Below, piece by piece: positions 35,256-57,333 of a stretch of 57,333 nucleotides of DNA. Below the pieces are notes generated by a model. It was given only the letters and a program-made list of their open reading frames with translations. It searched no databases and was not told where the DNA came from. Both the position numbers and the translations under genes were made by a program. The stretch's first letter is position 1. Each line of letters starts with the position of its first letter. The stretch spans positions 1 to 57,333 of the forward strand of contig CAIOTT010000045.1 of NCBI GenBank assembly GCA_903861305.1. Direction: 5' to 3'. Source of the stretch: Candidatus Omnitrophota bacterium. Lineage in GTDB: Bacteria > Omnitrophota > Gorgyraeia > Zapsychrales > Fredricksoniimonadaceae.

Positions 35256-35261
35256 ACACCG

Positions 35262-36833: not shown

Positions 36834-37004
36834 ATGGTACATATTATCGGTGGCGCCATTGCAGGCGTGCTTGGGTTGGTCGGGATCATCGGGTGGTGGG
36901 ACAATTTCGGGGATTTCCTCCGCGGTAGTATCCCGCTTGCGCTTTTCATTGGCGGTCTTATCGCGATCAACACCGGCATGAAATTCCTCAAAGAGAAGAA
37001 GTGA
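36834..37004 (+). CDS. mamI: Magnetosome membrane protein MamI (56 aa; not in ORF track)
   Basis: SD AAGGAG; MVHIIGGAIAGVLGLVGIIGWWDNFGDFLRGSIPLALFIGGLIAINTGMKFLKEKK matches the MamI WW...FLRG..P...GL.A signature. Confidence 0.88.
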   Translation: MVHIIGGAIAGVLGLVGIIGWWDNFGDFLRGSIPLALFIGGLIAINTGMKFLKEKK

Positions 37005-37010
37005 TCACGT

Positions 37011-37238
37011 ATGATCGGCAAGAGCGACAAATGCTTTAGTCCGTGGTACGGGTATCTTGTTATCCTGATCGTGTGCATCGTGATCGCCAGTGCGATCTTT
37101 TTTGAATTCAATGGCAGCCGCCGCAGCCGGGTCCGCCACAAGAGAGTCCCCAAGGTTACGGCCATGCAACCTGTGGCTTTACCGGTATCTGATGAGCAAG
37201 GCGGGATCGATACCGCCAAAGGCAAAGTTCTTTTTTGA
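37011..37238 (+). CDS. Small single-TM hypothetical protein in magnetosome cluster
   Basis: 75 aa, one TM segment, basic stretch, between mamI and mamE. Confidence 0.65.
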   Translation: MIGKSDKCFSPWYGYLVILIVCIVIASAIFFEFNGSRRSRVRHKRVPKVTAMQPVALPVSDEQGGIDTAKGKVLF

Positions 37239-37261
37239 TCTGATGGAGTCGCGGAGTCAAT

Positions 37262-38641
37262 ATGCCTGAAGAGAATAACGAAGAATTTTGTCACCAGCCG
37301 CTGGGCCCGTGGATCATCACGCTGGTCGTGGTGTCACTGCTGTCGGTCATGTGGGTGATCTTCCGCAGGGAAGACATCTTCAAGCCGGTTGAGATCAATC
37401 CGCCCGAATTACCCAAGAAGATCCTTTCTACAGTGGGTGAACCGTCATTCCCCAAAGGTGTGACCCAGGCGGCGGCTAATACCGCTGTGGTGGACCAGAA
37501 TTACAAGGCAGCAGCCATCACCAAGGCCACGCCCAACGGCGGCATGCAGCTTGTGGCCAATCAGGTCAATGGCGGTGGTTTCCAGAATTCCCTTAAGGAC
37601 GCGGTCAATGCCATTATTCCCACCGTGTGCGATATCCATGCCCGGCGCATCGGGCGCGCGACACCCAGGACCGCGCAGAACGCTCAGAATTTGAAGTTCG
37701 TCCCTCCCTTTGACGGCGTTATTGATAAATTTGTCGCGAACAAAGGTTATGAGAAGATCGGTTCCGGAGTTTTTGTGGATGACCGCGGTTATGTGTTGAC
37801 GAATTACCACGTGACCATGGACGCCACGGATGTTATCGTCACGGTCTTTGATAACCCGGCCAAGGATTATCATGCCGATATTGTCGCGCAGGACCCGAAC
37901 CTTGACCTGGCCATCCTCAAGCTGCGCGCGGACGGCCCGTTCCCGGAAGCCAAGGTCGGGGATTCGAGCTGGACGCAGGTCGGCGATTATGTGGTGGCCG
38001 TGGGCAGCCCTTTCGGCATCGAGCAGACCGTGACCAGCGGCATCATCAGCGGTATCCGCAAGTCCCTTGTTATCGAGGGCGTCCGCTACCAGAACCTTTT
38101 CCAGACCGACGCGCCCATCAACCGCGGTTCTTCCGGCGGCCCTTTGGTGAATTTGCAGGGAGAGTTGATCGGGATCAATTCAGCCATTTACGCGCCCACG
38201 GGAGTATTTAGCGGGACCGGGTTCGCCATTCCCATCAACGATTGCAAAGATTTTCTCGGCACGACGCTTGGCCGCAACTACGCGGTCCCTGTTGACCAGA
38301 AGGGTATGACGACGGTCGCCTTGACCAAGTTCAGCCACCTGGCGCCCGGGCCGTTGCCGGTCCATTTCGGCATTGAGGTCATGGAAGTCAATCCGGTCAT
38401 CGCGCGGCAGTTTGGGATAGCCACGAACCAGGGTGTCCTGGTCAATCGCATCATCGACGAGTCTCCGGCCAGTTTTGCGGGTATCCAGCGTGGTGACGTA
38501 ATCGTTGCGGTCGCGGGCGTTCCTGTCACGGACAAGGCAGATATCCCCAAGATCGTGGCTCATTTTAAAACAGGCGACAATGTCAACGTGCGTTTTCTCA
38601 GGAACGGGAAACAGAATGAAGTTCTGGTGAAGCTACAATGA
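37262..38641 (+). CDS. mamE: HtrA-type serine protease with PDZ, MamE-like
   Basis: TM anchor; triad LTNYHV / DLAIL / INRGSSGGPL; one C-terminal PDZ; cluster context. No CxxCH. Confidence 0.85.
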   Translation: MPEENNEEFCHQPLGPWIITLVVVSLLSVMWVIFRREDIFKPVEINPPELPKKILSTVGEPSFPKGVTQAAANTAVVDQNYKAAAITKATPNGGMQLVANQVNGGGFQNSLKDAVNAIIPTVCDIHARRIGRATPRTAQNAQNLKFVPPFDGVIDKFVANKGYEKIGSGVFVDDRGYVLTNYHVTMDATDVIVTVFDNPAKDYHADIVAQDPNLDLAILKLRADGPFPEAKVGDSSWTQVGDYVVAVGSPFGIEQTVTSGIISGIRKSLVIEGVRYQNLFQTDAPINRGSSGGPLVNLQGELIGINSAIYAPTGVFSGTGFAIPINDCKDFLGTTLGRNYAVPVDQKGMTTVALTKFSHLAPGPLPVHFGIEVMEVNPVIARQFGIATNQGVLVNRIIDESPASFAGIQRGDVIVAVAGVPVTDKADIPKIVAHFKTGDNVNVRFLRNGKQNEVLVKLQ

Positions 38642-39237
38642 AAAAGAAACACGCCGTGATCCATACCGTGAAAAGCCATAAGGACCAGGTCATCGACTTC
38701 GCGAAGAAGAACCCTGTGATCCTGGCCGGTATCGTTATCATGGCGGCCCTGATCCTTTCATCCTATGTTTCATACTTGAGAGCGCAGGAGATCCTTCCTG
38801 AGACCCAGGCAGCGGCAGGTGCGCCAAAACCTTTACGCACGGGAGCAGGTGATACGTTCAGCTGGCTGGGCATGGAAGTCGCGCCGCTTTCGAATATGCT
38901 GCGCAAAGAGTTCACCATCCCCGGAAAGATCAGGGGGATGTTCGTGCTCGACGAAGGCAAAGATCTGGCCTTCCAGTACGGGCTTAAGACCGCAGATGTG
39001 ATCGTGTCGATCAGCCGTCAAAATGTCGCTACAGCCAAAGATTTTATCCGCGCCGCCAATGGTGTCCGGTTCAGGGAAGGCATCGTGATGGATGTTTATC
39101 GCAATGGGCAGAATTTATACATCACGATCCCTTTTAGTTATCAGTACGGGCCTCTCATGGGGCCGAACAAAGGTACATGGCAGCTGGGTTCGCCGGTCTT
39201 CGGACAAAGCGTGCAGTACGGGCCGGTTTTTAGATAA
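38638..39237 (+). CDS. Membrane-anchored PDZ protein (MamE/MamP-type PDZ)
   Basis: TM segment; FSWLGMEVAPL..., GLKTADVIVSI; ATGA overlap with mamE. Confidence 0.75.
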   Translation: MKKKHAVIHTVKSHKDQVIDFAKKNPVILAGIVIMAALILSSYVSYLRAQEILPETQAAAGAPKPLRTGAGDTFSWLGMEVAPLSNMLRKEFTIPGKIRGMFVLDEGKDLAFQYGLKTADVIVSISRQNVATAKDFIRAANGVRFREGIVMDVYRNGQNLYITIPFSYQYGPLMGPNKGTWQLGSPVFGQSVQYGPVFR

Positions 39238-39285
39238 TTGTCAAGCGTTCCCTCCGTCGAAAGGAGGGGGCATGGAAAGGGATGT

Positions 39286-40704
39286 ATGGTCACAAAACCA
39301 CAGCGCGTCGCAGGTTTTTCGCTTGAGGAATTCACCTCACGGTTCAAGGAGGCGGACCTCAACACATTCTTTATTTTCGGCGCGATCATCCTGATCCTTA
39401 TCATAGGTGGTTACGCGCTCTTCTCAGCGGATTCACGCAATGCCGCCAAGGGCAATCCCGCCTGCGGTAAGATCGTTATCGCTGCGGATGGTTTTTCTCT
39501 GGCGTCCAACGTGTCTGCCACGTTATCTGACGCGCGCTATTTCCTGGTGGTCGATCCTTTGACCCGGAAGCTCGTCGATTCGATCAAGAACCCCTACCGC
39601 GGCCAGCAGAACACCCAACTTGTTTATTTGATCGCCGGTAAAGGCGAAGAAGCTGTGATCGTTGGCAGTATCGATCAGCAGAGTTATGACATCCTTGGTC
39701 AATTCGGTATCAGGGTTTTTGGCGGGTATCAGGGCCGGGCGCAGAAAGTTGTCAGGCTTTATCGCGAAGCCAGGATCGCCGCTACCCCGCAGCCAATGGA
39801 TGCTAACGTGCAGGGCTTTCCCATGGCGCAACAGGTCCGAGGGATGGGCCAGGGAATGAACGCGCAGGGTGCGGGGATGGGAATGTACCAGCCATGTCCG
39901 ATGCCGACCAGGGCTATGGTGAACGGGATGGGCATGGGGCTTGGAACGCAGGTCATGCAGGGTGCCGGTGCGTATCCGCCTTGCCCTTTGCCAACCAGGG
40001 CGATGGGCAATGGCATGGGGTATGGCATGCAAGTCATGCAGCCACCAGCGGTAAATAATTATCCTGCGGCAAATCAGGTTGGCTTGTTTGGTTGGGGGCA
40101 ACAGGCCTTTGTTTGCCCTACCTGCAACTGGCGTATGAAAGCATCCCGACAGGGAAACAGTTTTCCTCGTTGTCCTAATTGCGGCGGTTCAATGGCGTTG
40201 GATATGCCAAATCAGAACAATGAGGCGACCATAATTCCGGAAGGCATGTGGGCGGCCAATACACCAGCGATGGTCCCTCAATATAATCAAGGGGCTGTCC
40301 AATACAACCAAATGTTCGCTCAACAAAACTTGCCCCAGCAGGGCGCTGATTTGACAGGGGCGTTCCTTTGCCCGAATTGCAACTGGCGTATGTACTCCCA
40401 GCAGGGGGCGAACGAGTTTCCGCAATGCCCGAATTGCGGGCAGATCATGGCGCGGGCAGGTAATAGCGCTCGGGTTGTCAATAATGCTGCGCAGGTCGCT
40501 TTCGCGCCTGCGGCCGCGGTGGCGCAGCAACCCGCGGCTGATAATGCGCCCCCAATTCCGGCTGATGCGCAAATGACGCACGCGTATCGCGGGGTTTGTA
40601 CGAATTGCCATCAGATATCGCCTTCCACAGTTGGGGCTCAGGCGCAGAATTTTCCAAGCCCGGCGCAGGATAGAGCGCGTATGGCCATCGGCGGCGGTAA
40701 ATAA
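39286..40704 (+). CDS. Membrane protein with NifB/NifX-like domain, two Zn-ribbon repeats and a magnetochrome (CxxCH) domain
   Basis: KIVIAADG...ARYFLVVD...AVIVGSI (NifX-like); CPTC...CPNC and CPNC...CPNC; PPIPADAQMTHAYRGVCTNCHQI. Start uncertain. Confidence 0.75.
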   Translation: MVTKPQRVAGFSLEEFTSRFKEADLNTFFIFGAIILILIIGGYALFSADSRNAAKGNPACGKIVIAADGFSLASNVSATLSDARYFLVVDPLTRKLVDSIKNPYRGQQNTQLVYLIAGKGEEAVIVGSIDQQSYDILGQFGIRVFGGYQGRAQKVVRLYREARIAATPQPMDANVQGFPMAQQVRGMGQGMNAQGAGMGMYQPCPMPTRAMVNGMGMGLGTQVMQGAGAYPPCPLPTRAMGNGMGYGMQVMQPPAVNNYPAANQVGLFGWGQQAFVCPTCNWRMKASRQGNSFPRCPNCGGSMALDMPNQNNEATIIPEGMWAANTPAMVPQYNQGAVQYNQMFAQQNLPQQGADLTGAFLCPNCNWRMYSQQGANEFPQCPNCGQIMARAGNSARVVNNAAQVAFAPAAAVAQQPAADNAPPIPADAQMTHAYRGVCTNCHQISPSTVGAQAQNFPSPAQDRARMAIGGGK

Positions 40705-40740
40705 TCATGGAATTCACAAACCGGAACAGAAAGGTGAGAT

Positions 40741-41004
40741 ATGGCCAGTAAGCCCATCCTTTGCATGCATTGCAATGGTGAGATGCAACTTTATACGGGG
40801 CCGCGCTATAACAGGAAAGTCGCTGGTTTCCTGATCCTCGGCGGGCTTTTTGCCACCCTGTTCTGGATCGGTGCGGTCCTTGGTATCCCTCTCATCCTGA
40901 TCGGTCTTTATATGATGGGTTCAAAACGAGACCTCTGGGTCTGCAAGGATTGCAGCAGCGCTATTGAACGGATCAAGCTCAACCCTGAAACGATCGGTAA
41001 ATAG
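40741..41004 (+). CDS. LITAF-like zinc-ribbon membrane protein
   Basis: CMHC, then a ~30-aa hydrophobic hairpin, then CKDC; SD AAGGTGAG. Confidence 0.7.
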   Translation: MASKPILCMHCNGEMQLYTGPRYNRKVAGFLILGGLFATLFWIGAVLGIPLILIGLYMMGSKRDLWVCKDCSSAIERIKLNPETIGK

Positions 41005-41016
41005 CCTAACAAATCT

Positions 41017-42228
41017 ATGCCAGAACCACTCAAAAACTACCATATTATAAGGAAGCAGCGGATCTTGTTATTCGTGACGCTTGCTTTCATAGGCCTTCTC
41101 ATTGTGGCCGCGCTCATGCACATCGGCGCCGGGGACGCGGAGTGGGCTGGCATGACGGTTTCCAAACCCACCCCAGCGCTCATGATGGAATTCAGCATTC
41201 CAAAAGATGAAGTGGGTGTTGTCGTGAACTGGTGTGAAGACCCGGCGTATATCGCGGGCGTTCGCGGCGGGGATCTGATCAAGGCCATCAATAACAAACC
41301 GGTCAAGAATTTGCAGGAATTTCTGGCAGTCACCAAGACCACGGATATGCGCCAGGGCGTGCTGCTGGATATCCTGCGCAGTGGCCAGCCATTGTATATC
41401 ACGATGGAATACAAGCCCGGGATCCATGACAAGCTCAAGCAGGCGCTCAATATGGATACCGGCGTCACAGGTAATGCGCATGCCGCTAATCCGGCTCTCG
41501 CTGATCCTGTTGTTCCACCTGCGGCTGCATTGTCCGCTCCGAGGGATCTGCAGGCGGGTGCACAGCAGGTAGCTTTTGCGAATCGTGCTCCGGCTGAAAC
41601 TACTGAGGCGGCAGCAGCTAATCCTGCGTTGCCAACGCGCGCGCCTACAGGGAAATTACCGACACCCAAAGAACAGGGCGCGGCCCAGAAAGAACTTATC
41701 GAAGGGCACTGGCTTGGACTTGAACTTATACCGCTGACACCCGAACTGGCCAAGGAATATAAAGTTCCCGCAGATACTAATGGGCTGCTTGTCGATGAAA
41801 TTTCACTCGAATCCGCCGAGTCAGGGATATTGGCGGGTGATCTGGTTGTCGCGGTGAATGGGTTCGCCACGCCAGATCTTGTGGCGTTTACCGAAGCCAC
41901 ACGCCGGGTGAAGAACAAACATAAGGCTGATGTGCTCGTGTCCCGCCGCGGACGTATCATGGAATTCACTTTTAATTCGGTCAGGACCCTGGGTTTTTCG
42001 CAGAATGAAGCGGCTCAGCCGATCACACCGGGTGCGTTAAGCCCCCATCGCAGCAGGAACAAACCTTGCACGGCGTGCCACATCATCATGGTCACTGGCG
42101 GGCAGTTGCCGACGGATGCGGGCGACATCCTGCCCAATCCGCCCCCGATCACCAAGGGCGCTGTGGCTCCCCATGAATATCGCGGCAAATGCAACACCTG
42201 CCATATCATGCTGAGGCCTGCTCTATGA
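41017..42228 (+). CDS. mamP: MamP-like protein: TM, two PDZ domains, two magnetochrome domains
   Basis: EGHWLGLEL PDZ signature; PITPGALSPH...CTACH and PPITKGAVAPH...CNTCH. Confidence 0.87.
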   Translation: MPEPLKNYHIIRKQRILLFVTLAFIGLLIVAALMHIGAGDAEWAGMTVSKPTPALMMEFSIPKDEVGVVVNWCEDPAYIAGVRGGDLIKAINNKPVKNLQEFLAVTKTTDMRQGVLLDILRSGQPLYITMEYKPGIHDKLKQALNMDTGVTGNAHAANPALADPVVPPAAALSAPRDLQAGAQQVAFANRAPAETTEAAAANPALPTRAPTGKLPTPKEQGAAQKELIEGHWLGLELIPLTPELAKEYKVPADTNGLLVDEISLESAESGILAGDLVVAVNGFATPDLVAFTEATRRVKNKHKADVLVSRRGRIMEFTFNSVRTLGFSQNEAAQPITPGALSPHRSRNKPCTACHIIMVTGGQLPTDAGDILPNPPPITKGAVAPHEYRGKCNTCHIMLRPAL

Positions 42229-42506
42229 AACTAATGACTGTAATTAAGATCATCCTTGGACTTTTGTTCATTGTTTTTTTTGGCATGTTTGTTTTCGAGA
42301 ACATTGATCCTGTCAGGATATGGATCCCTCTTTTTAAGGGCCGCCAGTGCGGGCTGATCTATATCATCCTGGTTTCATATATCATCGGTGTTTCGAACAT
42401 GTTCTGGTTCATGGTCCATTTTGGTTCAAAGATGAAGAGGAAGCAGAAGCTGACTGAATTGAAGGAGCAGGAGCAGGAGCAGGAGTTGTTCGAAGATGAA
42501 GGCTGA
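42225..42506 (+). CDS. mamL: MamL-like small membrane protein
   Basis: Start moved to ATG 42225 (overlaps mamP stop). Two TM segments with FENIDPV loop, basic KMKRKQK after TM2; directly before mamM. Confidence 0.65.
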   Translation: MKLMTVIKIILGLLFIVFFGMFVFENIDPVRIWIPLFKGRQCGLIYIILVSYIIGVSNMFWFMVHFGSKMKRKQKLTELKEQEQEQELFEDEG

Positions 42507-43386
42507 GCCAAAGGTGAAAAATCTCGCCAAATGCGAGTCCTGCGCGCGCAAAACCATTTTTGCCGGGATCCTGGCGAATATTTTTCTAGCCGCTTTCAAG
42601 CTTTTTGTCGGCTTCATGGGCCGCAGCCGCGCGTTGATCGGCAGTGGCTTGTGCAACCTTAGCGATGTCATTTCATCGATCGTGGTCATCATCGGCGTCA
42701 AGTATTCCAAAAAACCGGCCGATGGCCGTTATCCTTACGGATACGGCAAGGTTGAGTTCATCTGCCAGGTCGTGATGAGCGTCATCATGATCCTGGGTAC
42801 GGCCGCGCTGATCCTGAGTTCGTTCATTGTCATTGCCAAGCGTATTTTTGTCGTCCAGCACGTGGTCGTGTTCTTCGTGGCGATCCTCAGCGCCGTCATC
42901 AGCGCGTTCATTTACAAGTTCTCACACTGCGGCGGGGAAGAGCTGAACAGCCCTTCATTAAAAGCGCACGCTGAACACAACAAGATCGACGTTATTTCAT
43001 CGCTCCTGGTCGCCATCGGTGTGGTGGTGACGCACATGGGGTTGCACTGGGTCGACCCGGTCATTGCTATTTTTGAGTGCGCGCATGTCCTTCATGCCAG
43101 TGTCGGGATCCTCCAGAACGGCCTGCGCGGCATGGTCGACAGGAATTTGCCCGAAGATTATTTGAACAAGATAAAAACCCTTGTGCAGACAGTTAAAGGC
43201 GTCAGTGCCGTCAAGCACGTGAGGGCGCGCCAGACAGGCCGTCAGATCGTCCTTGATATCGCGATGCAGATGGACCCGGACATTACCGTTATGGAAGCGA
43301 AGCGGATCAACCAGTCGGTCCGCGCGTTCCTGCGCAGTGAAGATAAACATATAGGCCACATCTCTATTGTGGATGTTCCGGTATAA
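42496..43386 (+). CDS. mamM: Magnetosome CDF transporter MamM
   Basis: N-terminal CxxC, YPYGYGKVEF, NSP..KAHAEH...D, WVDPVIAIFE, RARQTG. Confidence 0.82.
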   Translation: MKAEPKVKNLAKCESCARKTIFAGILANIFLAAFKLFVGFMGRSRALIGSGLCNLSDVISSIVVIIGVKYSKKPADGRYPYGYGKVEFICQVVMSVIMILGTAALILSSFIVIAKRIFVVQHVVVFFVAILSAVISAFIYKFSHCGGEELNSPSLKAHAEHNKIDVISSLLVAIGVVVTHMGLHWVDPVIAIFECAHVLHASVGILQNGLRGMVDRNLPEDYLNKIKTLVQTVKGVSAVKHVRARQTGRQIVLDIAMQMDPDITVMEAKRINQSVRAFLRSEDKHIGHISIVDVPV

Positions 43387-43395
43387 GGTTAACAC

Positions 43396-44307
43396 ATGCA
43401 AGAAAAATGCGTCCGTTGCGGTAAAGTGGTCCCCTGGATCGTCCTTTTGGGCAATCTGACGCTGGCTATTTTTCAGATCTATGTCGGGTATGTCGCCAAG
43501 TCCAAGGGGTTGATCGCGGACGGGTTCCACTCCGGTACTGACGTTATCACAACGGTGATGGTCATTATCACCGTCAAGCTTTCCAGCCACAAGGATGACA
43601 AGAAATATCCCTGGGGACTGGGCAAGTCTGAATTTTTGGGCGCGGTATTCGCCTATATATTGCTCTTTGGTATTTCGCTCATGATCCTGATCGACGCGAT
43701 CGCTGTCATTTGCAGCGGCGTCATCCATCCGCCGCATATGGCCGCGTTCTTTGCCGCGGGTGTGGCTATCCTGGCCAATTACATCCTCTCGTCCTATGGC
43801 TTTTGCGTCGGAAGAAAATTGAATTCGCCGGCCATGATCGCCAATGCCCAGGAAAACCGTTCTGACATGCTCTCGAGCATTGCGGTGCTTTTGGGTGTTT
43901 TTGCAGCGAACATCGGATTTCCCATCCTTGACGCGCTGGCCGCTATCCTGGTCGGTTTGATGATCGGCAAGTCCGCGGTCACGCTGGGTATCCAGGCTTA
44001 CAGGAACCTGATCGATGAATCGCTGCCCGGGGAGAAGGAAAAGCTTATCGAAGAGGAAGTCATGCAGTACAGGGAGGTCAAGGGCGTCAATTACGTCCAT
44101 GCCCGCCGTGTCGGCCAGCAGGCGTGGATCGACATGGAAGTCATTATCGACGCCAAAAGAACGGTCAAAGAAGGCCACGCCATCACGCGTGAGATCCGCC
44201 AGGCGCTGATGCGCCGTTTCGCCCAGATCAAGGAAGTGACCATCTCATTCACGTGCAAAGAGAACACAGTCGTTAAACCGGCGGCAGTGCCAGCCGTTAA
44301 GAAATAG
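43396..44307 (+). CDS. mamB: Magnetosome CDF transporter MamB
   Basis: N-terminal CxxC, ADGFHSGTD, CVG...NSPAMIANAQENRSD, GFPILD. Confidence 0.87.
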   Translation: MQEKCVRCGKVVPWIVLLGNLTLAIFQIYVGYVAKSKGLIADGFHSGTDVITTVMVIITVKLSSHKDDKKYPWGLGKSEFLGAVFAYILLFGISLMILIDAIAVICSGVIHPPHMAAFFAAGVAILANYILSSYGFCVGRKLNSPAMIANAQENRSDMLSSIAVLLGVFAANIGFPILDALAAILVGLMIGKSAVTLGIQAYRNLIDESLPGEKEKLIEEEVMQYREVKGVNYVHARRVGQQAWIDMEVIIDAKRTVKEGHAITREIRQALMRRFAQIKEVTISFTCKENTVVKPAAVPAVKK

Positions 44308-44342
44308 ATCGTACAGGGCAATCAATAAACGCAGGAGAGAAT

Positions 44343-45203
44343 ATGGAAGAGCTCAAAAAACACAAGATCCACGCTGACATAGACGAGAAAAAGCTTCATC
44401 ACGCCGCGGTTGAAGAAGCGCCCGCCGCGGATGATGCGGATACCGATACCGACGATGCTGAAGAAACCGAAACGGTCGTCGTCAAGAAAGTCAAAAAACA
44501 TACCCGTTCCCGCAAGGTCGTTGAAGAAGAGAACGTTAAAACAGGCCCTTCGATCAACGAGAAGCTGAAGATCGCGGCGCATGTGTCGATGTCAACGGCC
44601 GAGCGCATCATCGGCGGTCTCACCAATGCCTATCAAAGCGTGTTCGTCGCACCTGAGGCGACCAAGGAGAATTTTCTCAAGGAACAGGGCTACAAATTCT
44701 TCCAGAAGGGTGATTTTGAGAAGGCCCGTGACAGTTTTCTCGAATACCTTGATACCGGTAAAGACCAGGACGCCGACCTTCTCTATATGATCGGTGTTTG
44801 CCACAAGAATCTCGACGAGTTCAAGGAGGCCCTGGAGTATCTGCGCAAAGCCGAAAAACTCGAGGCTGAAGACCCGAACATCATCACCGAGATCGGGGAC
44901 TGCCTCCTGACGCTCGAAGAATACCCCGAAGCCATCAGTTATCTGCTGAAGGCCGCGGATATCCATCCGGACCATGCCGATATTTATTACCATCTGGGCA
45001 CCTGCCACGAGAAGACCGAGCAGGTTGAAGAGGCCAAGAAATTCTACAAGAAAGCGATCGACCTGGAGCCGCGCGAGGCTGTGTATTATCAGGCGCTCGG
45101 ATTTTTGTATGAGAGCACCGGCAATCACAAGGACGCCATCGTCTGTTTCAAAAAAGCCATGGACATGGAAAAAGGTAAAAAACGGGGGGGGTCTAAACAA
45201 TGA
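44343..45203 (+). CDS. mamA: TPR scaffold protein MamA with acidic N-terminal extension
   Basis: About 5 TPR units; position between mamB and mamQ. Confidence 0.8.
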   Translation: MEELKKHKIHADIDEKKLHHAAVEEAPAADDADTDTDDAEETETVVVKKVKKHTRSRKVVEEENVKTGPSINEKLKIAAHVSMSTAERIIGGLTNAYQSVFVAPEATKENFLKEQGYKFFQKGDFEKARDSFLEYLDTGKDQDADLLYMIGVCHKNLDEFKEALEYLRKAEKLEAEDPNIITEIGDCLLTLEEYPEAISYLLKAADIHPDHADIYYHLGTCHEKTEQVEEAKKFYKKAIDLEPREAVYYQALGFLYESTGNHKDAIVCFKKAMDMEKGKKRGGSKQ

Positions 45204-49659: not shown

Positions 49660-49712
49660 AAGATTTCTTAAAAAAGACTTTTGAAAACGCCCCGGCAAGA
49701 TATGATGATGGC

Positions 49713-50048
49713 ATGTTCAAGCAAAAACTGGCTTCATTTTTGACCGAGGCTGCGCGCGAGGGTATCAGTAAGCTCGATAAAGATTCGCCGGCAGCCCGGG
49801 AACTTGGTACCCTTGATGTGGATGTCGTCCTTAAGGAAGATATTCATCAGATCTGTGAAGCGATCACTTTTCCCGAGATCATGAGGGTCCTTTCTCTCGG
49901 GGCGACGATCAAACTTGGCTCGGGAGATACGCAGCGCGCCAAGGACGATATCAAGAAGATGGCCCTGGTCATTGAGGACAGGATCACGCAGAGGCAGGGG
50001 AAGTTAAGGCTTCCTTCATCATGCCGTGATCTGTTATTTAATCTATAA
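49713..50048 (+). CDS. Hypothetical protein
   Basis: 111-aa co-oriented ORF; no motif recognised. Confidence 0.65.
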   Translation: MFKQKLASFLTEAAREGISKLDKDSPAARELGTLDVDVVLKEDIHQICEAITFPEIMRVLSLGATIKLGSGDTQRAKDDIKKMALVIEDRITQRQGKLRLPSSCRDLLFNL

Positions 50049-50062
50049 GAGGAAGGCGTTAG

Positions 50063-50833
50063 ATGAAATCGTTGCTTGTAAAAGTTTTTATGATGCTTTC
50101 AGCGGCGTTCTGCATGCTGGAGGGGCTCGTCCTGATCGCGGTTGGCCTTGGTCGGCTTCCGTCTGAACAATTGCTGGCGGTCTATACCCGTTTGATGGCG
50201 GCGCCCAAATCCCTGACAACCGTCCTGGGTATCGGTGTGTTTTTTGTCCTGCTGGGCTTTATTCTTCTTATCCTTTCTTCTCGGACCAAGCCGGTCCCGC
50301 ATGAGATCCAGGTGGAGAAGGATGGCAAGGTCTTGAACATCCCTGAGAGGGCGGTCAAGGATTTTATCCTGCAGATCATCGCGCAGAATCCCTGCACTTC
50401 TGATGTTACGGTCGCTTTTGAGCGTAAGGAAAAAGATATCGAGATCGAGATATCCGCTTCACTTGACGGTGTTTCATCGATCTACAAAGAGTTGAACGAG
50501 ATCGAGGACGTCCTCAAGAGCGAGCTCGACCGGGTATTCGAGTGGAAGGCCTTCACGATCAGCTTCCATTTGCGCGGTATCGGGGTTGACCCTAAAAAGA
50601 AATATTTTGCCGCGGCGCCTGCTGCTGTAGCGATCGCTGCAGCGGTCGAACAGGTTTCCCCTGCCTCGGAAGAAAAGGTTGAAGCCACTGAAGAGCCTCT
50701 GCGATCTGTCTTGGTTTCCGAGGCCGATGAAGAGGATGAAAAACCCGTCAACGAACAGTTGTTGGCGCGCAAAACACCCAAAGAGAGCCCTAAAGCCAGT
50801 TCATTTTTCAGTAAAATTTTACTAGGAAGATAA
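50063..50833 (+). CDS. AmaP/Asp23-like membrane anchor protein
   Basis: Two N-terminal TM segments, G.V.I...AV..F Asp23-like segment, acidic C-terminal tail. Confidence 0.55.
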   Translation: MKSLLVKVFMMLSAAFCMLEGLVLIAVGLGRLPSEQLLAVYTRLMAAPKSLTTVLGIGVFFVLLGFILLILSSRTKPVPHEIQVEKDGKVLNIPERAVKDFILQIIAQNPCTSDVTVAFERKEKDIEIEISASLDGVSSIYKELNEIEDVLKSELDRVFEWKAFTISFHLRGIGVDPKKKYFAAAPAAVAIAAAVEQVSPASEEKVEATEEPLRSVLVSEADEEDEKPVNEQLLARKTPKESPKASSFFSKILLGR

Positions 50834-52827
50834 TGGCGATCAGCCCCGCAGAAAGCCAACAGAGCCGTGTGCCCGAGGCGCATGGAAGCACGGGCGTGCC
50901 CCATGGCGCGCGTGTGAGGAAAGTTGCTATTGTCGGCCTTCCCAATACCGGCAAGACCCAGATATTCAACAACCTCACCGGCGAATACAGCATCGTTGCC
51001 AACTACCCCGGCACCACGATTGAAATGAGGCGCTCTGTCGTCATGATCAAGGACCAGCGTTACGAGGTCATTGATACACCGGGCCTGCATTGTTTATACA
51101 TCCATTCTGAAGAAGAGGTCGCTGTCCGCGACATGATCCTTGCGGAAGCGCCCGATGTTATTGTCCAGTGCCTTGATGCCAGCCAGTACAAACAGTCATT
51201 GCTTCTGACCGCGGAACTGCTGGAACTGGAAACGCCGATGGTCCTGGTGCTCAATGCCATGGATGAGGTCGGGCGTAAGGGGTTATGGGTCGATTCCACA
51301 CAGCTTGAGAAACTTCTTGGTATCCCTGTTGTCGAATCAGTGGCTTTGCGCGGCTTGGGCAAGGAAGAGCTGAAAGCCGCCATAGCAGCTGCCAGGAAGA
51401 GTTCCCTGAACGTCGCCTATGGGTTCAGGATCGAAAGCTTGATACTGGAACTTACTTCGGCGCTCCCTTTTTCGCTTGAATTCAAACACAAGATCGCAAC
51501 CCTCCTGTTGCAGAACGATCCTTTTTTGGAGAAGTACCTTGAGAAAAGAGTCGACGCCCAGGCGCTGACCCAACTGCGTTCGACGCTGGCGAATATTCGC
51601 GGGCAGGGCAAGGGCAACATTGCCCAGGCCATCAATGATAAACGCAACCGCTGGATCGACACGGTCGCCGCATCGGCTGTCAGGAAGCAAAAAATATCGT
51701 ACCAGGGGCTTTCACACTACGTCACCCAGGCCAGCCGCCAGCCGCTTTTTGGGATACCTATTTTCTTGTTCCTGATGGCGGTGGTATACCTTTCGGTAGT
51801 GTATGTCTCGGGAGCACTGGATAAACTCATCAATTTTGTGGCTGTTGCGCCCGTGACCGCCCTGATCACGTCTCTGTCCCTGCCTGTGTTCTGGAATGAC
51901 CTTCTGATCGGCAACCACGGCATCCTGACACTGGGGCTCTTTAACGCTATCTGCACGGTCCTTCCGATCCTTTCCGTGTTCTTCTTTATTTTTGGATGTT
52001 TTGAGGATAGCGGGTACATAACGAATTTTACGGTTTTGACCAAGACGATATTTGAAAAGATCGGGATACCCGGCAACGCCATTACATCGTTGGTCCTGGG
52101 TTTTGGCTGCAAGACCATGGCGACCCTCAGCACGCGCGGGCTTACGGTCAGGAAAGAGAAATTCATTGCTGTTTTTCTTATTGCCTTTGCCATTCCATGC
52201 TCGGCGCAGCTGGGGATCTCCATGGCTATCCTGGCGCGCGTGGGCCTGAGCGCTTTTTTGACCGTTTTTGTCGTGCTCATCCTTTGCGAGGTCGGGGCAG
52301 GGCTTTTGCTCAATACGATCCTTAAAGGACGGGACGCGAGCTGGTTTATTCAGGTCATCCCGCCATTGCGTTTCCCAAGCATGCGGGCGGTCTGCCGTAA
52401 GACCTACCACCGCATCGTCGATTTCCTGAAAGAAGCCCTTCCTATTTTTATTTTTTCGGCTGTAGGGTTGTTCATTTTTGACAAAACCGGCCTTTTGGGC
52501 CTTACCAAGCAGGCCATGACCCCCATGATCGTAAATTGGATGGGGCTTCCTAAAGATATCATTGATGTGTTCCTTCTGGCCCTTGCGCGGCGTGAAGCAG
52601 CCGCCGGGCTTATCCTCAAGATGGTCGATGCCGGTTCCCTGAACTATATCCAGTCCATTCTCGCGGTGATCGTGACAACGATATCATTCCCCTGCGTGGC
52701 GAACGTTATTGCCATCGGCAGGGAGATGGGGTGGAAAACAGCGCTCTTGATGACGACCCTTATCTTTGTTTCGTCATTCATCCTCGTTGGGGCGCTGCGG
52801 TGGGTATTGGTCCTTGTGTGTCACTGA
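50833..52827 (+). CDS. feoB: Ferrous iron transporter FeoB (magnetosome-cluster type)
   Basis: G1 GLPNTGKT, ANYPGTT, DTPG, NAMD; gate motifs EDSGY, LGFGC, IPCSAQL, FPC. Confidence 0.92.
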   Translation: MAISPAESQQSRVPEAHGSTGVPHGARVRKVAIVGLPNTGKTQIFNNLTGEYSIVANYPGTTIEMRRSVVMIKDQRYEVIDTPGLHCLYIHSEEEVAVRDMILAEAPDVIVQCLDASQYKQSLLLTAELLELETPMVLVLNAMDEVGRKGLWVDSTQLEKLLGIPVVESVALRGLGKEELKAAIAAARKSSLNVAYGFRIESLILELTSALPFSLEFKHKIATLLLQNDPFLEKYLEKRVDAQALTQLRSTLANIRGQGKGNIAQAINDKRNRWIDTVAASAVRKQKISYQGLSHYVTQASRQPLFGIPIFLFLMAVVYLSVVYVSGALDKLINFVAVAPVTALITSLSLPVFWNDLLIGNHGILTLGLFNAICTVLPILSVFFFIFGCFEDSGYITNFTVLTKTIFEKIGIPGNAITSLVLGFGCKTMATLSTRGLTVRKEKFIAVFLIAFAIPCSAQLGISMAILARVGLSAFLTVFVVLILCEVGAGLLLNTILKGRDASWFIQVIPPLRFPSMRAVCRKTYHRIVDFLKEALPIFIFSAVGLFIFDKTGLLGLTKQAMTPMIVNWMGLPKDIIDVFLLALARREAAAGLILKMVDAGSLNYIQSILAVIVTTISFPCVANVIAIGREMGWKTALLMTTLIFVSSFILVGALRWVLVLVCH

Positions 52828-52858
52828 CGTTGTAACGTAATCAGGAAGGCCACGCTTG

Positions 52859-53731
52859 ATGTACCAACGGACTGTCAACGGGACATGGTTCGCCGACCGG
52901 CAATCGCTGTGTTTGATGATCGCCGGCGCGCTTTTGGCGATCCTGCTGGCCGTTAACTTCTTGTGCAATGACACCCCGGACCGCGGACGTATTGTCCGTA
53001 TCAGTGGCCGTGTCACGCTCGAGCGCGCGGGCGAGGCCGTAACTCCGGGCGTAGGGATGTTGTTGAACGCCCAGGATAAAATATTGACCGGCGCGGACTC
53101 TTATGTTGAAGTTTCCTATGACGAGGCTGACAAGGATATCATGCGCATCGGGCCAGGGTCCCGCGTTGTCTTTGAAAGCGCCAGGATCGAGAAGCGTACG
53201 GCCATTTTCATGGACAGAGGCGAGATCAAGCTCAAACTCGACAGCCTTCAAAAAGGTTCGATGTTCAAGGTGCGCACACCGGTGGCCATTGCTGGTGTCC
53301 GGGGGACCGCGTTCGGCGTCCGGTTCAATGGCAAAGAGGTCCTGATCACGGATTACGAGAGCCGTATCTTTGTGAAGGGCTTGACACCGAACTACCTTGA
53401 GATGAACGACGAGCTATTGTTGAGCAATGGCTGGAACGTCCAGGTCGCGCAGTTCGAGAAGCCTTCAAGGGTGGCGCGCATGTCCGTCCAGGAGTTGCAG
53501 GAGTGGAAATCGTGGCTGGCCTCTGTTGACGCCTTGCCCAAAGCGGCGTCCGTGAGCAACGCGTCTTTTGTAAGCTTTATCCATTTCGCTCCGGGTTCCT
53601 GGCACCAGGCCGTGACGTTCCTGACGGCGGTGAGAACAAATCTCTCTTTATCACCATCAGCCCTGGCCCTTATGCTGTATGCTGTGCTGGCGCTGGGGAT
53701 GGGAAAAGTCGTGGAGAAAGTATGGCTGTGA
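52859..53731 (+). CDS. FecR-domain membrane protein
   Basis: G.V...GM.L...DKI.TG.DS, VRTPVAIAGVRGTAF; N- and C-terminal TM segments. Confidence 0.8.
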   Translation: MYQRTVNGTWFADRQSLCLMIAGALLAILLAVNFLCNDTPDRGRIVRISGRVTLERAGEAVTPGVGMLLNAQDKILTGADSYVEVSYDEADKDIMRIGPGSRVVFESARIEKRTAIFMDRGEIKLKLDSLQKGSMFKVRTPVAIAGVRGTAFGVRFNGKEVLITDYESRIFVKGLTPNYLEMNDELLLSNGWNVQVAQFEKPSRVARMSVQELQEWKSWLASVDALPKAASVSNASFVSFIHFAPGSWHQAVTFLTAVRTNLSLSPSALALMLYAVLALGMGKVVEKVWL

Positions 53732-54480
53732 CACGCAATGACGATCAGGATGAACACATTGAGCAATTGTGGTACATGAAGGAGGAGGGCAAGTCTTCTC
53801 TTGAATTCATGAAGAAAGCCATGAAACGCGCGTTTGATCCTAAGGTGGTCGATGAGTTGGCGCAACGCGGCCTTGTCGAACGCGGCGGGGAACCTGTAAC
53901 TATCAGATTGACGGTCCAGGGAGAAGCCAGGGCCCGTCAATTGATCCGCGCGCATCGTTTGGCGGAGCGGCTGATTGCCGACGTCCTGGGTGGCGGCGAT
54001 CTGGAGCAGATCGCGTGTGAATTTGAACATACCGTATCCCTGGAACTGGTCAACGGTATTTGCACGCTCTTGGGCCATCCCAAGGAATGCCCTCACGGCA
54101 TGCCTATCCCGGAAGGCGATTGCTGCCGTCTGGCCAAAAAATCAGAATTCAGTTTTATCATCCCCCTCGGTGACCTGAAACTTGGTGAAAGTGCCCGGAT
54201 CGCCTATATCAATTGCAAGAGCGACCAGCAGATCCACAAGCTTGAGGGCTTGTGCATACGTCCCGGTGTTGTCATCAAGCTGCATCAGACTTATCCGACC
54301 CATGTCATCGAGTGCGAAGGCGCCAGCATTGCCCTTGATAAAGGCGTTGTGGCGAATATATCGGTCTGGAAAAATCAGCCAGGGGTTGATGAGGTGGCCC
54401 TGTCCCAGGTTACTGACAAGAAAGAGCCTGCCAGCACAGGGAATAAATTTGTTGATTTCCTTTTCAGGAAAGTATTGTAG
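53722..54480 (+). CDS. DtxR/MntR-family metal-dependent regulator with FeoA domain
   Basis: LT..G...A..LIRAHRLAERL, ACEFEH, LGHPKECPHGMPIPEG, C-terminal FeoA. Confidence 0.85.
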   Translation: MAVTRNDDQDEHIEQLWYMKEEGKSSLEFMKKAMKRAFDPKVVDELAQRGLVERGGEPVTIRLTVQGEARARQLIRAHRLAERLIADVLGGGDLEQIACEFEHTVSLELVNGICTLLGHPKECPHGMPIPEGDCCRLAKKSEFSFIIPLGDLKLGESARIAYINCKSDQQIHKLEGLCIRPGVVIKLHQTYPTHVIECEGASIALDKGVVANISVWKNQPGVDEVALSQVTDKKEPASTGNKFVDFLFRKVL

Positions 54481-54504
54481 AATAAATCACTTCTGGAGGA
54501 TTTT

Positions 54505-55704
54505 ATGGAAGACCATCTTGAAGCTTTACGTCAGAAGCAAAAAAAGCTGACGTTCCTTTTCGGCGAACTTGTTTACGGTCTTTGCCGGTCCGACGATGCC
54601 CGGTTCCGTCCGATCGCCGAGAATAAAGAGGCAAAGAAGTTTTTGGACCTTCTGGACTATCTGGCTGACAGGATCGACAAGATCGAAGCCCTTTACAGTG
54701 TCGAACTTGAAGCTGAAGCCCAGGCGGAAGAGGACGAAGCTGCGGGTATGGCACAGCCTGAAGCAGAGCCTGTCGCTGAAGATGTGCCTGAGGCGGAGGG
54801 ATCATTTGAAGAGGCGGCGGTTGAGGAAGAAGCCGCGGCGGCGCAGGAAGCCATCACCGCGGAAGCTCCTGTCGAGGTTGCTGTCCCTCAGGAAGAAGCC
54901 GAAGCTGAACCTTTGCCTTCAGTAGATGATGTCCCGGCAGAGGATGAAGAGCCCCAGATCACGGAAGCCGTGGAAGATGAGGTCAATCTGATCGTTGCAG
55001 AAGAGAACCCTTCGCGTTCCTCTCTTTCCCGTCAGAGGTCTGAAGCCGCTGACACGCTGGCGGAGATACTGGAAACCGCCAAATTCTCGTCGAGCGCTAA
55101 CCGGAGGCTCTTTGAAAAGAATATCAAGCAGTTGCGCATGGGAACCGAGCTTGAGCGTGAGATCAGCGTGGCTCAGATCGCTCATATAACTCCAAAGGCA
55201 GCCCTCCACAGGGTTTACGAGATCGCGATGCGTGACGAGAGCCCCCTGGTCCGTCTTACTGTCATCAAGAATATTTCACGGATGAAAGAAGGTGATGCCG
55301 AAGGTTTTTTTGATCTTGGCATCAATGATCCGGATCCCAAGGTCAGGGCGGCCGCGATCAAGGGCCTGGGCAGCCGTGTTTGCGAAAAGCACCGCAAACT
55401 GCTCGAAGGGTTGTTGAAGGACGATGATGTCCATGTGCGGGGCCTGGCTGTTACCTACCTGGGGATATATTACGGTAAGGATGGGGTAAAAAAAGCCATG
55501 ACCTCGTGGACGGATGACAGCCCTTATGTGCGCGCCAGCCTCCTGGAAATGCTTTCTATCGTCAAGCCCGACGGGGTTCTCACGATCGTGAAGGACCTTC
55601 TTTCTGATCCAGATCAAGAAGTAAAAAAAGCGGCTGAGAAAGCGCTGGAAAAACTCATGCCGGAACGAACAAAAGGAAAAGCTAATGGCAAAAGAAAAAA
55701 ATAA
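54505..55704 (+). CDS. HEAT-repeat protein with acidic linker, Mad23-like
   Basis: C-terminal HEAT/PBS repeats (DESPLVR, DPDPKVR, DDDVHVR, DDSPYVR, DPDQEVK); E/A/P-rich middle; cluster context. Confidence 0.75.
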   Translation: MEDHLEALRQKQKKLTFLFGELVYGLCRSDDARFRPIAENKEAKKFLDLLDYLADRIDKIEALYSVELEAEAQAEEDEAAGMAQPEAEPVAEDVPEAEGSFEEAAVEEEAAAAQEAITAEAPVEVAVPQEEAEAEPLPSVDDVPAEDEEPQITEAVEDEVNLIVAEENPSRSSLSRQRSEAADTLAEILETAKFSSSANRRLFEKNIKQLRMGTELEREISVAQIAHITPKAALHRVYEIAMRDESPLVRLTVIKNISRMKEGDAEGFFDLGINDPDPKVRAAAIKGLGSRVCEKHRKLLEGLLKDDDVHVRGLAVTYLGIYYGKDGVKKAMTSWTDDSPYVRASLLEMLSIVKPDGVLTIVKDLLSDPDQEVKKAAEKALEKLMPERTKGKANGKRKK

Positions 55705-56134
55705 CAAGAATTCAGGTGAAGCTTTTGTAAAGACTGTTTCATACGGGACCGGCCTTATTTGCAAGAAGATCGCCGCGCTGGGAAAGGTCACCCAGACGAA
55801 GGCCTGGAAGAACGCGATCGCCAAAACAAAAGATGTGTGCGAAACGGTCGGCGGGAAGGCCGATGTCCTCCTTGATAAGGTGGCTACAAGTGTTGAAGAG
55901 GGTGCGCGGGATATTGGAAAATCCTTTAACGCCGGCATGAAATCTGTCGCCGAGGAAGCCAAAGAGACGGCTGTGCCTAAAAAGAAGTCTGCCGGCAAGG
56001 CCAGGCCTAAGGGCAAGCTCAAGAGCGCGGCCCGCAAGGCCAAGGTGGCGGCTGCTGTTGCGCAGGATATACCTGTTGAGCCTGTGCTGGAGCAAGAGAT
56101 CGAGAATGTCACCAAGGACGTCGAGACCGTATAG
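55685..56134 (+). CDS. Hypothetical basic helical protein
   Basis: 149 aa, K/A-rich, overlaps the upstream stop; SD AAGGA. Confidence 0.6.
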   Translation: MAKEKNNKNSGEAFVKTVSYGTGLICKKIAALGKVTQTKAWKNAIAKTKDVCETVGGKADVLLDKVATSVEEGARDIGKSFNAGMKSVAEEAKETAVPKKKSAGKARPKGKLKSAARKAKVAAAVAQDIPVEPVLEQEIENVTKDVETV

Positions 56135-56167
56135 ACTTTTTCGCGCTAGACGGACTGAAAGTATAAG

Positions 56168-57333
56168 ATGGCAACAAAAAAGACGCAGGAACTTCTCCAG
56201 GAGTCTGAAAAGCAGGCTGAATCCGTGTATGCTTCCCTTGGCCGGCTGCTCTACGAGAACATCCAGGCCGGGGCGATCAGTTATTCCTTTACATCGCCTG
56301 ATACCGCGCTGACCGCCAAGGCCAAGCGGCTGCTGAGGGATATTGTTGCGGAGAAGATCTCGGATCGAAGGACAAAACGTGCACCCCTCCTGCGTCCGCC
56401 GCCGGCTAAGGCTCCGGTCAAAGCACCGGTACGTCCTTCTGTTGAGATACCCCCCAGGAAAGCACCGAAAAACAAGGTCGTGGCTGTCCTCAAGGGCGTG
56501 GGGCATGTTCTCTCCGACCTGTCCGCGGCCGCAGCGCCTGCGCCTGCAAATGCGCCAAAGCCCGCGGTTTCCCGGCGAGGCCAGCTGGATCCCTATACAA
56601 AACTTATTGTTACGGGGCAGGTCTGCGCGAACAAGATCATTGATGTTCAAAAAGATTTTAATGACTGTCTCAGTGCCGGTCTCTTGCATACCACCGGCGA
56701 GCGGACGGCGGTCTTTCAGGCAGCTGCGGATGAGAAGATCCAGTCTATCATTTCATTGATGGCCCACAGGCGGGAGGAGATCAAAAGCGTTATGGAACAA
56801 AAAAGACAGTTCTTCGCGGAGAATCCCGAGGCCCCTATCTGGAAGGCCGAAGAGAATTTTCTCAAACATGTAGAACAGGAGATCGATGAAACCACGCGGC
56901 ATATCGATCGCCTTGTTGACGAGGTTGTCGGGCTTTTTAAGAACATCAACGATGTGTTTGAAAAAGACCTGGAGCACGCGCGGCTTTCCCGTGAAGCCCG
57001 CGCCGCGCTGGCCCAAGAGCCTGAAGAGGCCCCTCAGGAGGAGCCGTTACTTCCGGATCCGGTGTCCGATGAACCGGAGCCTTCCGTTGAAGAAGAGGGT
57101 CTTGTTGCTGAAGTGGCAACAGAAGAAGCCTTTGCCGCTGAATCTGAAGAAACCTCGTCTGAAGAAGCGGGTGATTACGGGCTATTTGAGACGGCGGCAC
57201 GCAAACTCGGCCGCGAGAGCATTTCCGACGAAGAGAAGCTCGCCGTCCTGCACACGCTTTTCCGCAATGCGCCCAAGAGGGCGGTCCCGTTCTTTTATGA
57301 ATTGACGCGGGAAGCGGATATCTTTTTCCAGAG
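56168..57333 (+). CDS. Hypothetical coiled-coil/acidic protein, 3'-truncated (not in ORF track)
   Basis: MATKKTQELLQESEKQAESVYASLGRLLYENIQAG...; frame open to the window end (...ELTREADIFFQ). Confidence 0.75.
   Translation, partial: MATKKTQELLQESEKQAESVYASLGRLLYENIQAGAISYSFTSPDTALTAKAKRLLRDIVAEKISDRRTKRAPLLRPPPAKAPVKAPVRPSVEIPPRKAPKNKVVAVLKGVGHVLSDLSAAAAPAPANAPKPAVSRRGQLDPYTKLIVTGQVCANKIIDVQKDFNDCLSAGLLHTTGERTAVFQAAADEKIQSIISLMAHRREEIKSVMEQKRQFFAENPEAPIWKAEENFLKHVEQEIDETTRHIDRLVDEVVGLFKNINDVFEKDLEHARLSREARAALAQEPEEAPQEEPLLPDPVSDEPEPSVEEEGLVAEVATEEAFAAESEETSSEEAGDYGLFETAARKLGRESISDEEKLAVLHTLFRNAPKRAVPFFYELTREADIFFQ

Follow-up and report, generated by a model that had tools for sequence, protein, structure and literature searches.

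The stretch of DNA analyzed here (hereafter the window) is the entire 57,333-nt contig C45 of G000, a metagenome-assembled genome (MAG) of a Candidatus Omnitrophota bacterium that comprises 1.74 Mb in 74 contigs, at 68% completeness and 0.09% contamination. The right-hand part of the window is occupied by 24 plus-strand open reading frames (ORFs), running from 36834 to 57331 and tightly packed with intergenic gaps of -40 to +57 nt. The last of them is open at its 3' end and runs past the contig end: as the window covers contig C45 in full and the MAG is 68% complete, this gene is incomplete. Pfam and NCBIfam profile searches of the window ORFs (Table 1) point with good confidence to a genuine magnetosome gene cluster (MGC) of the Omnitrophota type. 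Its main operon-like block spans about 36.4 kb to the contig end, as a gene for a DNA-binding protein of the HTH_17 family, lying just to the left of the mamI gene with which an earlier note on this DNA had begun the cluster, also belongs to it. The comparisons below use the five other MGC-bearing species genomes among 401 sampled Omnitrophota: G219, which is of the same family as G000, and G241, G327, G388 and G368. For the distal genes of the cluster, counts in these relatives cover the stretches that were fetched.

Table 1. Genes of the cluster and its left flank, with the match or layout behind each label
Gene or product	Position	Strand	Basis
ApbE-family flavin transferase (possible left-flank member)	35262..36227	+	Pfam ApbE 4.3e-64
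HTH_17 (MerR/excisionase-type) DNA-binding protein, putative cluster regulator	36511..36798	+	Pfam HTH_17 4.3e-8, from profile position 10 onward
mamI, 56 aa, 2 transmembrane (TM) segments	36834..37004	+	NF040963 MamI 3.7e-12, sole match
Single-TM protein, 75 aa, no known family	37011..37238	+	Chance-level PetL match only
MamE-type HtrA protease: TM, trypsin, PDZ	37262..38641	+	Trypsin_2 1.4e-31, PDZ_2
TM + PDZ protein	38638..39237	+	PDZ domain best matched by MamP model, 2.5e-10; one TM
NifX-zinc-ribbon-magnetochrome protein, TM	39238..40704	+	Pfam MCR 1.4e-8, Nitro_FeMo-Co 2.6e-6, zinc-ribbon families
87-aa CxxC - hydrophobic hairpin - CxxC protein	40741..41004	+	Layout only
mamP: TM, two PDZ, two magnetochrome haem sites	41017..42228	+	NF040965 5.3e-65
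MamL-like small protein, 2 TM + charged K/E-rich tail	42189..42506	+	Weak LapA_dom match only
mamM, CDF transporter	42496..43386	+	NF033615 1.1e-73, top match
mamB, CDF transporter	43396..44307	+	NF033616 1.1e-70, top match
mamA, TPR protein	44343..45203	+	NF040959 2.2e-40, top NCBIfam match
mamQ, LemA family	45200..45994	+	NF040966 4.2e-31, sole NCBIfam match
TM-PDZ-MamN (CitMHS/ArsB permease) fusion	46005..47807	+	NF040989 MamN 3.3e-72; PDZ residues 80-147
TauE/SafE permease, 'MamO-Cter' equivalent	47822..48838	+	TauE 1.6e-55
PLDc_N small membrane protein, 58 aa	48896..49072	+	PLDc_N 2.3e-12; in 4/5 relatives
Second TM + PDZ protein	49084..49659	+	PDZ_2 3.4e-9; in 5/5 relatives
111-aa soluble protein, no known family	49713..50048	+	No Pfam/NCBIfam match; in 3/5 relatives
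AmaP-like membrane anchor, acidic tail, 2-3 TM	50063..50833	+	NF033218 2e-14, 53.7 bits vs cut-off 55
feoB	50833..52827	+	TIGR00437 327 bits, above cut-off 315.65; G1 + G3 motifs present
Membrane-anchored FecR-domain protein	52856..53731	+	FecR 3.5e-11; TM residues 18-36
DtxR/MntR-family metalloregulator, FeoA/SH3-like C-terminal domain	53722..54480	+	Fe_dep_repr_C 5.3e-21, FeoA 6.5e-8
Helical N-terminus + acidic linker + HEAT protein	54505..55704	+	HEAT_2 1.5e-21; Mad23-like architecture
K/A-rich soluble protein, 149 aa, no known family	55685..56134	+	In 3/5 relatives, 31-47% identity
Second helical/acidic-linker/HEAT protein, cut by contig end	56168..57333	+	Weak BdpA (BAR-like) 2.8e-4

The Mam-specific NCBIfam models rank first for MamI, MamP, MamM, MamB, MamA, MamQ and MamN, and second for MamE. 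The MamI gene, with a GGAGG motif upstream of its ATG, encodes the only MamI match in the entire MAG (45.9 bits against a cut-off of 80) and is conserved at 73-84% identity in all five relatives. MamP carries CXXCH motifs at residues 351 and 392, with two matches to the magnetochrome profile MCR, and finds the solved MamP structure 4jj0 in the PDB at 4.7e-41, far above any DegP. Solved MamA chains are found by the MamA protein at about 1e-16, among many other TPR proteins. Across the MAG the magnetochrome model detects five sites, three in the window and two on contig C29, as against none in 14 control genomes. The catalytic triad of the MamE-type protease (motifs TNYHV, DLAIL and GSSGG), the CXXCH motifs of MamP and of the NifX-magnetochrome protein, and the G motifs of FeoB are all intact. 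The protease itself has no CXXCH motif and no magnetochrome domain, and the degP model (2.3e-88) ranks above the MamE model (5.5e-78) in NCBIfam; its assignment to MamE draws on synteny and on the second rank of the MamE model.

HtrA, cation diffusion facilitator (CDF), LemA and TPR proteins are all widespread families, and the same genes might be read as a generic envelope-stress and metal-efflux cluster that has nothing to do with magnetosomes. The higher rank of degP for the protease would fit such a reading, as would the PDB search with MamB, in which FieF gives the best match over the full length. MamI, the magnetochrome-bearing MamP and MamN, all specific to magnetosome clusters, speak against it, and so do the paralogue comparisons, which separate the cluster genes from their housekeeping counterparts. 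For the CDF pair the MamM and MamB models score 248 and 238 bits, as against 114 and 108 for FieF. In a 42-row CDF tree (a quick IQ-TREE run under LG+G4 with SH-aLRT support, without named MamB or MamM references from outside the phylum), the window MamB and MamM fall inside clades made up only of MGC-linked copies (support 100 and 99), each beside its counterpart from G219, and six of the seven housekeeping CDFs of Omnitrophota lacking an MGC form a separate clade. Homologues of MamB show 52-97% identity within Omnitrophica, after which there is a gap to generic CDFs at 37% or less. The LemA family is matched in 291 of the 401 genomes, with scores of 278-584 bits only in the six MGC genomes and 98 bits for the best of the others. 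Hence, we consider the generic reading extremely improbable. The earlier note had proposed a magnetosome gene cluster and had pointed to grouping of the CDF, LemA and HtrA proteins with non-magnetosome homologues as the outcome that would speak against it; the top ranks of the Mam models, the MamP structure match, the CDF tree and the LemA scores agree with its proposal, and both the CDF and the LemA proteins group with the MGC-linked copies. Nearly all of the domains that it listed are likewise reproduced by Pfam and NCBIfam, its 'LITAF' and 'mamL' labels being the ones that find no profile support.

The protein labeled 'LITAF' is the 87-aa CxxC protein, which is conserved at 65-73% identity in all five relatives and has no LITAF match in Pfam at E<=0.01. 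The MamL label is backed by no family model and follows from architecture; the orthologues of this gene encode 91-94 residues, which suggests a start near 42225. The 75-aa TM protein occupies the same position in all five relatives, at 39-56% identity. The NifX-magnetochrome protein combines two zinc ribbons and one haem site, joined by Q/M/G-rich linkers; its CXXCH lies at residue 454, and four more CxxC motifs are present. It has approximately 58 homologues, nearly all from Omnitrophica. The orthologues of the PDZ-MamN fusion measure 600-632 residues in all five relatives. The TauE permease matches only positions 373-648 of the MamO model (3.1e-8), i.e. its C-terminal half, so that MamO is represented in the window by its TauE half alone; trypsin-only genes, one of them degenerate, are found on contig C29. 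The 111-aa protein was considered as an Asp23 partner of the adjacent AmaP-like gene and this was rejected: it is not Asp23, and the Asp23 gene of the MAG sits on contig C22. The ESM Atlas yielded nothing usable for this protein.

By analogy, the in-cluster feoB may be of the Mad17 type, feoB having been equated with mad17 (PMC9376291; this and the other papers cited here were available in part). The DtxR/MntR-family regulator matches MntR (2e-17) and DtxR (9.6e-15) in NCBIfam, and its N-terminal HTH domain goes undetected in the Pfam and NCBIfam scans. The first HEAT protein is a distant paralogue of the last gene of the cluster; two very specific peptide patterns, searched in genome contigs, retrieve only named Omnitrophota records as its relatives. 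The last gene has a full length of 653-687 residues in the relatives, with HEAT repeats at the end of the protein, and its orthologue in G241 has a HEAT_2 match at residues 459-517. A third HEAT-repeat protein, related to the HEAT end of the last gene (E 2e-10), is encoded on contig C34 of G000 (57-974) and is syntenic with a gene two genes downstream of the last cluster gene in G327; the distal end therefore carries a HEAT protein trio. Scans for promoters (13 hits, as against 13.2 in shuffled sequences) and terminators (27 as against 22.2) do no better than shuffles, and Rfam gives no match in the window at the gathering threshold.

By its sequence relationships the cluster is assigned to the phylum Omnitrophota. 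The best relatives of MamP (49-77% identity) and of MamB are nearly all MAG proteins deposited at NCBI as 'Candidatus Omnitrophica/Omnitrophota bacterium', and the six named loci retrieved via the HEAT protein are all Omnitrophota MAG records. A MamP-type protein is present in six of the 401 Omnitrophota species genomes, G000 included. Across the five relatives 15 of the 24 cluster genes are matched every time with their order kept, PLDc_N is matched in four, and the eight distal genes are matched in two or three; seven of these eight are present once more on contig C16 of G327, the exception being the gene for the 111-aa protein. Compared with the nearest species genome, the proteins are 46-83% identical. 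The core proteins are 72-83% identical to those of G219, as compared to 49-80% for the flanking genes: the core is thus conserved as well as or better than its flanks, which argues for purifying selection. In G327 the genes from the MamL-like one through to the HEAT genes are present twice, on contigs C16 and C11; both copies are similarly identical to the window (MamM 76% in each), with the full set of additional genes that we term module 2 (see below) in one only. Either this stretch has been duplicated or the bin contains two populations.

Since the gene order recurs in all five relatives, the order that the earlier note had called divergent and unusual is the norm of the phylum, and its claim of novelty does not hold. 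Clusters of this content and order have been published already, and the window adds another member: in the parts available of Lin et al. 2018 (PMC5955933), four Omnitrophica MGCs are described as sharing content and order and as differing from the clusters of other phyla; Lin et al. 2020 (PMC7602337) add 20 genomes of magnetotactic Omnitrophota, with feoB usually inside the MGCs; and Uzun et al. 2020 (PMC7449369) report that all magnetotactic members of the phylum have a gene set specific to them. The same note had counted about ten accessory genes that it could not assign; these genes, several of which are of no known family, are conserved members of a lineage-specific set rather than oddities of the window. 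Its guess at an Omnitrophota-like lineage was sound, as the relatives of MamP, MamB, the NifX-magnetochrome protein and the HEAT protein attest.

To the left of mamI, a homologue of the HTH_17 gene is found upstream of mamI in four of the five relatives; in G327 it lies after the second TM-PDZ gene instead. Paralogues of this gene head module 2 on contigs C52 and C29 of G000. An ApbE homologue occurs within approximately 3 kb upstream of mamI in three of the five relatives (G219, G388 and G368), which suggests that the ApbE gene of the window is possibly a left-flank member of the cluster. Further upstream lies a partner-switching set of a CHASE2-SpoIIE protein, an RsbW-like kinase and a STAS protein; the same set flanks the MGC of G219 and that of G241 in synteny. 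At 16315-27063 and 27079-34480, on the same strand as the cluster, the window carries a chemotaxis operon, two hybrid kinases and this partner-switching set; the chemotaxis operon encodes three methyl-accepting chemotaxis proteins, CheA-CheY, CheB, CheW and a CheR-TPR protein. Among the 20 upstream proteins scanned there is no integrase or transposase, and the window has no tRNA. A MamK (NF040964) or actin-like match was obtained neither in the window nor elsewhere in the 68%-complete MAG; the lack of a mobile-element mark at the left border and of mamK within the window had both been remarked on before.

The lack of mamK has a likely explanation. In three of the five relatives MamK scores above its cut-off on another contig, with 86% identity among the three proteins. 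Contig C63 of G000 opens (1-533) with homologues of the mamK-flanking genes of G219 and G368. As the mamK neighbor of those genomes matches the start of C63, mamK was probably lost in the assembly gap before this contig. The sequence following the cluster in G327 matches contig C34 of G000 and then C66; an exact search of the metagenome contigs for the last bases of the window gave no match.

Several observations weigh against taking the window as a functional magnetosome cluster. All Mam-specific NCBIfam scores are under their curated cut-offs, in models that we take to be built on alphaproteobacterial (model-organism) sequences. The HTH_17 gene has an uncertain start: its frame is open from 36421, and the first canonical start, a TTG at 36511, would remove part of the HTH. 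The contig end truncates the last gene, and the 68%-complete MAG has yielded no MamK or actin-like gene. MamP is absent from all five other species of the genus, at 89-96% completeness, and is found in one of the 15 other genomes of the family; a 257-aa ion-channel-like protein encoded upstream of ApbE is likewise not found in these five congeners.

One reading of these points is that the cluster is intact but silent, or incomplete, being a relic or expressed only under certain conditions, and that the cell makes no magnetosomes. The absence of MamP from the congeners, which indicates that the magnetosome trait is readily lost, the lack of an actin-like gene and the doubtful HTH_17 start would all be in line with this, and a silent MGC has been documented in a non-magnetotactic phototroph (PMC9938234, in part). 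Yet all 24 ORFs are open and comparable in length to their orthologues, the motifs for catalysis and haem binding are undamaged, the core is conserved at least as much as the flanks, and the loss of mamK is most simply ascribed to an assembly gap in a 68%-complete MAG. Hence, we regard a silent or incomplete cluster as improbable.

A second reading is that the contig is mis-binned, or that the MGC was recently acquired laterally, so that it has little bearing on the genus. The absence of MamP from the congeners is compatible with it, and so is a DNA comparison of 18000-37500, a 19.5-kb stretch that leads up to the cluster start and just past it, with the five congeners, which gave only scattered short matches; island borders could not be mapped in that way. 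Against it, the tetranucleotide correlation of contig C45 with the rest of the bin (r=0.986) is the third highest among the 47 contigs of at least 10 kb, its MGC half alone reaches r=0.971, both halves are alike, and the GC content is flat across the left cluster border. The left flank, with its partner-switching genes and, in the case of G219, ApbE, is syntenic with G219 and G241; the left border is free of integrase, transposase and tRNA genes; and the branching of the CDF tree follows the taxonomy, with the window pairing with the same-family genome and the order-level and then the class-level relatives branching outside. Composition and synteny thus led us to reject mis-binning of the contig, and the reading as a whole, with its lateral variant, appears very improbable. 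The patchy distribution, together with a CDF tree congruent with taxonomy, fits the published picture in which MGCs descend vertically and are lost many times. In the same MAG, the contigs C33, C74, C28, C6, C55 and C10 (10-26 kb) have a lower GC content of 45-49% and tetranucleotide correlations of 0.62-0.82 with the bin, and are possibly islands or mis-binned pieces.

Two insertions seen in relatives are missing from this copy of the cluster. The first, module 2, is a set of approximately ten genes that follows the second PDZ gene in G219, G368 and the C16 copy of G327. It encodes an HTH_17 protein, a NifX protein, a small zinc-ribbon protein, a membrane 4Fe-4S protein, a PDZ protein, a two-haem magnetochrome protein, two divergent CDFs, a PAS protein and a GCAxxG protein. 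In G000 it lies on other contigs, at C52:18417-19735 and C29:18177-41371, a stretch with several NifX-like proteins, two Fer4_5 membrane proteins, PDZ proteins, and MamM-like and MamB-like CDFs. Its continuation, seen in G000 and G219, comprises a CDF-NifX fusion, selD-AhpD, methyltransferases, an HgdC-type activase with three HGD-D-like proteins, selA, selB, and the two trypsin-only proteins, of which one has a degenerate GSCGS site. Four of the six MGC genomes have an orthologue of the module 2 MamB-like CDF; the other 395 sampled genomes have none. The neighbors of module 2 in both G000 and G219 include a PDZ gene with an in-frame TGA. In G000 this is a TM-PDZ gene beside selA on the minus strand of C29 (24307-24738), with the TGA in the middle of the PDZ domain and a frame that runs about 30 residues further, completing the domain; it is possibly a selenoprotein or a broken gene.

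The second insertion is a complete haem-synthesis operon of 10 kb that lies between mamP and the MamL-like gene in G327 (C11:41113-50994) and G388 (C78:40127-50359). It encodes GluTR, porphobilinogen (PBG) deaminase, CobA/HemD, ALAD, HemL and two radical-SAM/SPASM enzymes, and owing to these last two it appears to be of the siroheme-dependent type. Its position puts it beside genes for magnetochrome proteins, which bind haem. G000 has only a distant haem-synthesis copy, on contigs C24 and C36. We found no description of either the haem insert or module 2 in the literature searched, the figures and supplements of PMC5955933, PMC7602337 and PMC7449369 being outside that search. It is conceivable that the Omnitrophota MGCs are modular and that module 2 constitutes a second, Fe-S or selenium-dependent redox and transport arm of biomineralization, but we hold this as a speculation that is rather unlikely to be right. 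Were it so, module 2 could decide the mineral type or crystal habit in the phylum, or might give rise to another mineral or to an additional compartment.

From the families present, with roles known from the genetics of Magnetospirillum and Desulfovibrio magneticus RS-1, a working model of the organelle can be proposed. MamI, the MamL-like protein, the LemA-family MamQ and MamB would shape the membrane, and MamA would form the coat of the organelle. Ferrous iron would be transported by the MamM/MamB pair together with the cluster's own FeoB, with the PDZ-MamN and TauE (MamO-Cter) permeases handling protons or anions. An active HtrA protease (MamE) and three PDZ-only membrane proteins may sort and process the components. 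The balance of Fe(II) and Fe(III) for crystal growth would be set by the two-haem MamP and the lineage-specific NifX-zinc-ribbon-magnetochrome protein. The two HEAT/acidic proteins, given their Mad23-like architecture, may link the particles to a MamK filament encoded elsewhere. The HTH_17 protein at the head and the DtxR-type protein inside the cluster are the likely regulators.

The mineral formed would, in our estimate, be magnetite, a choice we favor with moderate confidence as the literature is divided. Only two species of this uncultured phylum have been seen under the microscope (PMC10066038, in part). In the text available of Lin et al. 2020 (PMC7602337), most MGCs are classed as Fe3O4-type, and only two Omnitrophota bins hold both types. 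The phylum is listed among the lineages with tooth-shaped magnetite in the portions at hand of PMC12748827. Further, the nearest MamB from outside Omnitrophota is from Planctomycetes, matching a published grouping of 'Fe3O4-type Planctomycetota and Omnitrophota'. The competing reading, greigite or another iron sulfide, draws on Uzun et al. 2020 (PMC7449369, in part), where Omnitrophica MamABKMPQ cluster with a putative greigite group, the mineral is called uncertain and re-examination is urged, a point that weighs against magnetite. Two Omnitrophota MAGs reported to carry genes of the Fe3S4 type (Lin et al. 2020, PMC7602337, in part) and the richness of the cluster and module 2 in NifX-like and 4Fe-4S proteins would also accord with a sulfide. 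We judge a sulfide unlikely, though by less than for the other alternatives considered here, and retain magnetite as the more probable product.

The annotated cluster offers a data point for the gene set that defines the Omnitrophota organelle, whose mineral is disputed. This lineage set includes the NifX-magnetochrome protein, the PDZ-MamN fusion, three PDZ-only proteins, the HEAT trio and the in-cluster Feo, DtxR and FecR genes. The comparison across relatives separates the fixed parts of the cluster from the movable ones, i.e. module 2 and the haem operon. Current views of how magnetosomes evolved are unaffected by the cluster.

Among known systems the cluster is closest to the other Omnitrophota MGCs: from mamI to the HEAT genes it has the same gene set and order as all five relatives, sharing with them the double-PDZ MamP, the PDZ-MamN fusion, the TauE-only MamO, the NifX-magnetochrome protein and the in-cluster feoB. 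It differs in having neither the haem operon after mamP, which is present in G327 and G388, nor module 2 after the second PDZ gene, where G219, G368 and G327 carry it. The likeness to the cluster of strain RS-1 is one of domain content only. The protease is split from PDZ-only proteins, as is the case with FmpA, and the TM-PDZ protein at 38638-39237 resembles FmpA or 'MamE-Cter' (PMC4287615, in part). Likewise, magnetochrome and NifX domains are joined in one protein as in FmpB, according to the part of the literature available, but FmpB combines magnetochrome, PDZ and NifX domains, and here the order is reversed, with NifX N-terminal and the PDZ domain on a neighboring gene, so that the FmpB arrangement is not reproduced. 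The HEAT repeats of two window genes recall Mad23 (PMC12748827, in part), and the feoA/feoB-type genes recall mad30 and mad17 (PMC9376291, in part). Unlike the RS-1 cluster, the window has MamM and the MamN fusion. The relationship to the mamAB operon of Magnetospirillum is evident in mamI, mamE, mamP, mamM, mamB, mamA, mamQ, mamN and a partial mamO, all of which are recognized by NCBIfam. However, the order differs from that operon, MamE is without a magnetochrome domain, MamO is represented by its TauE half only, and the block has no mamJ, mamK or mms6-type gene, containing instead many lineage-specific genes.

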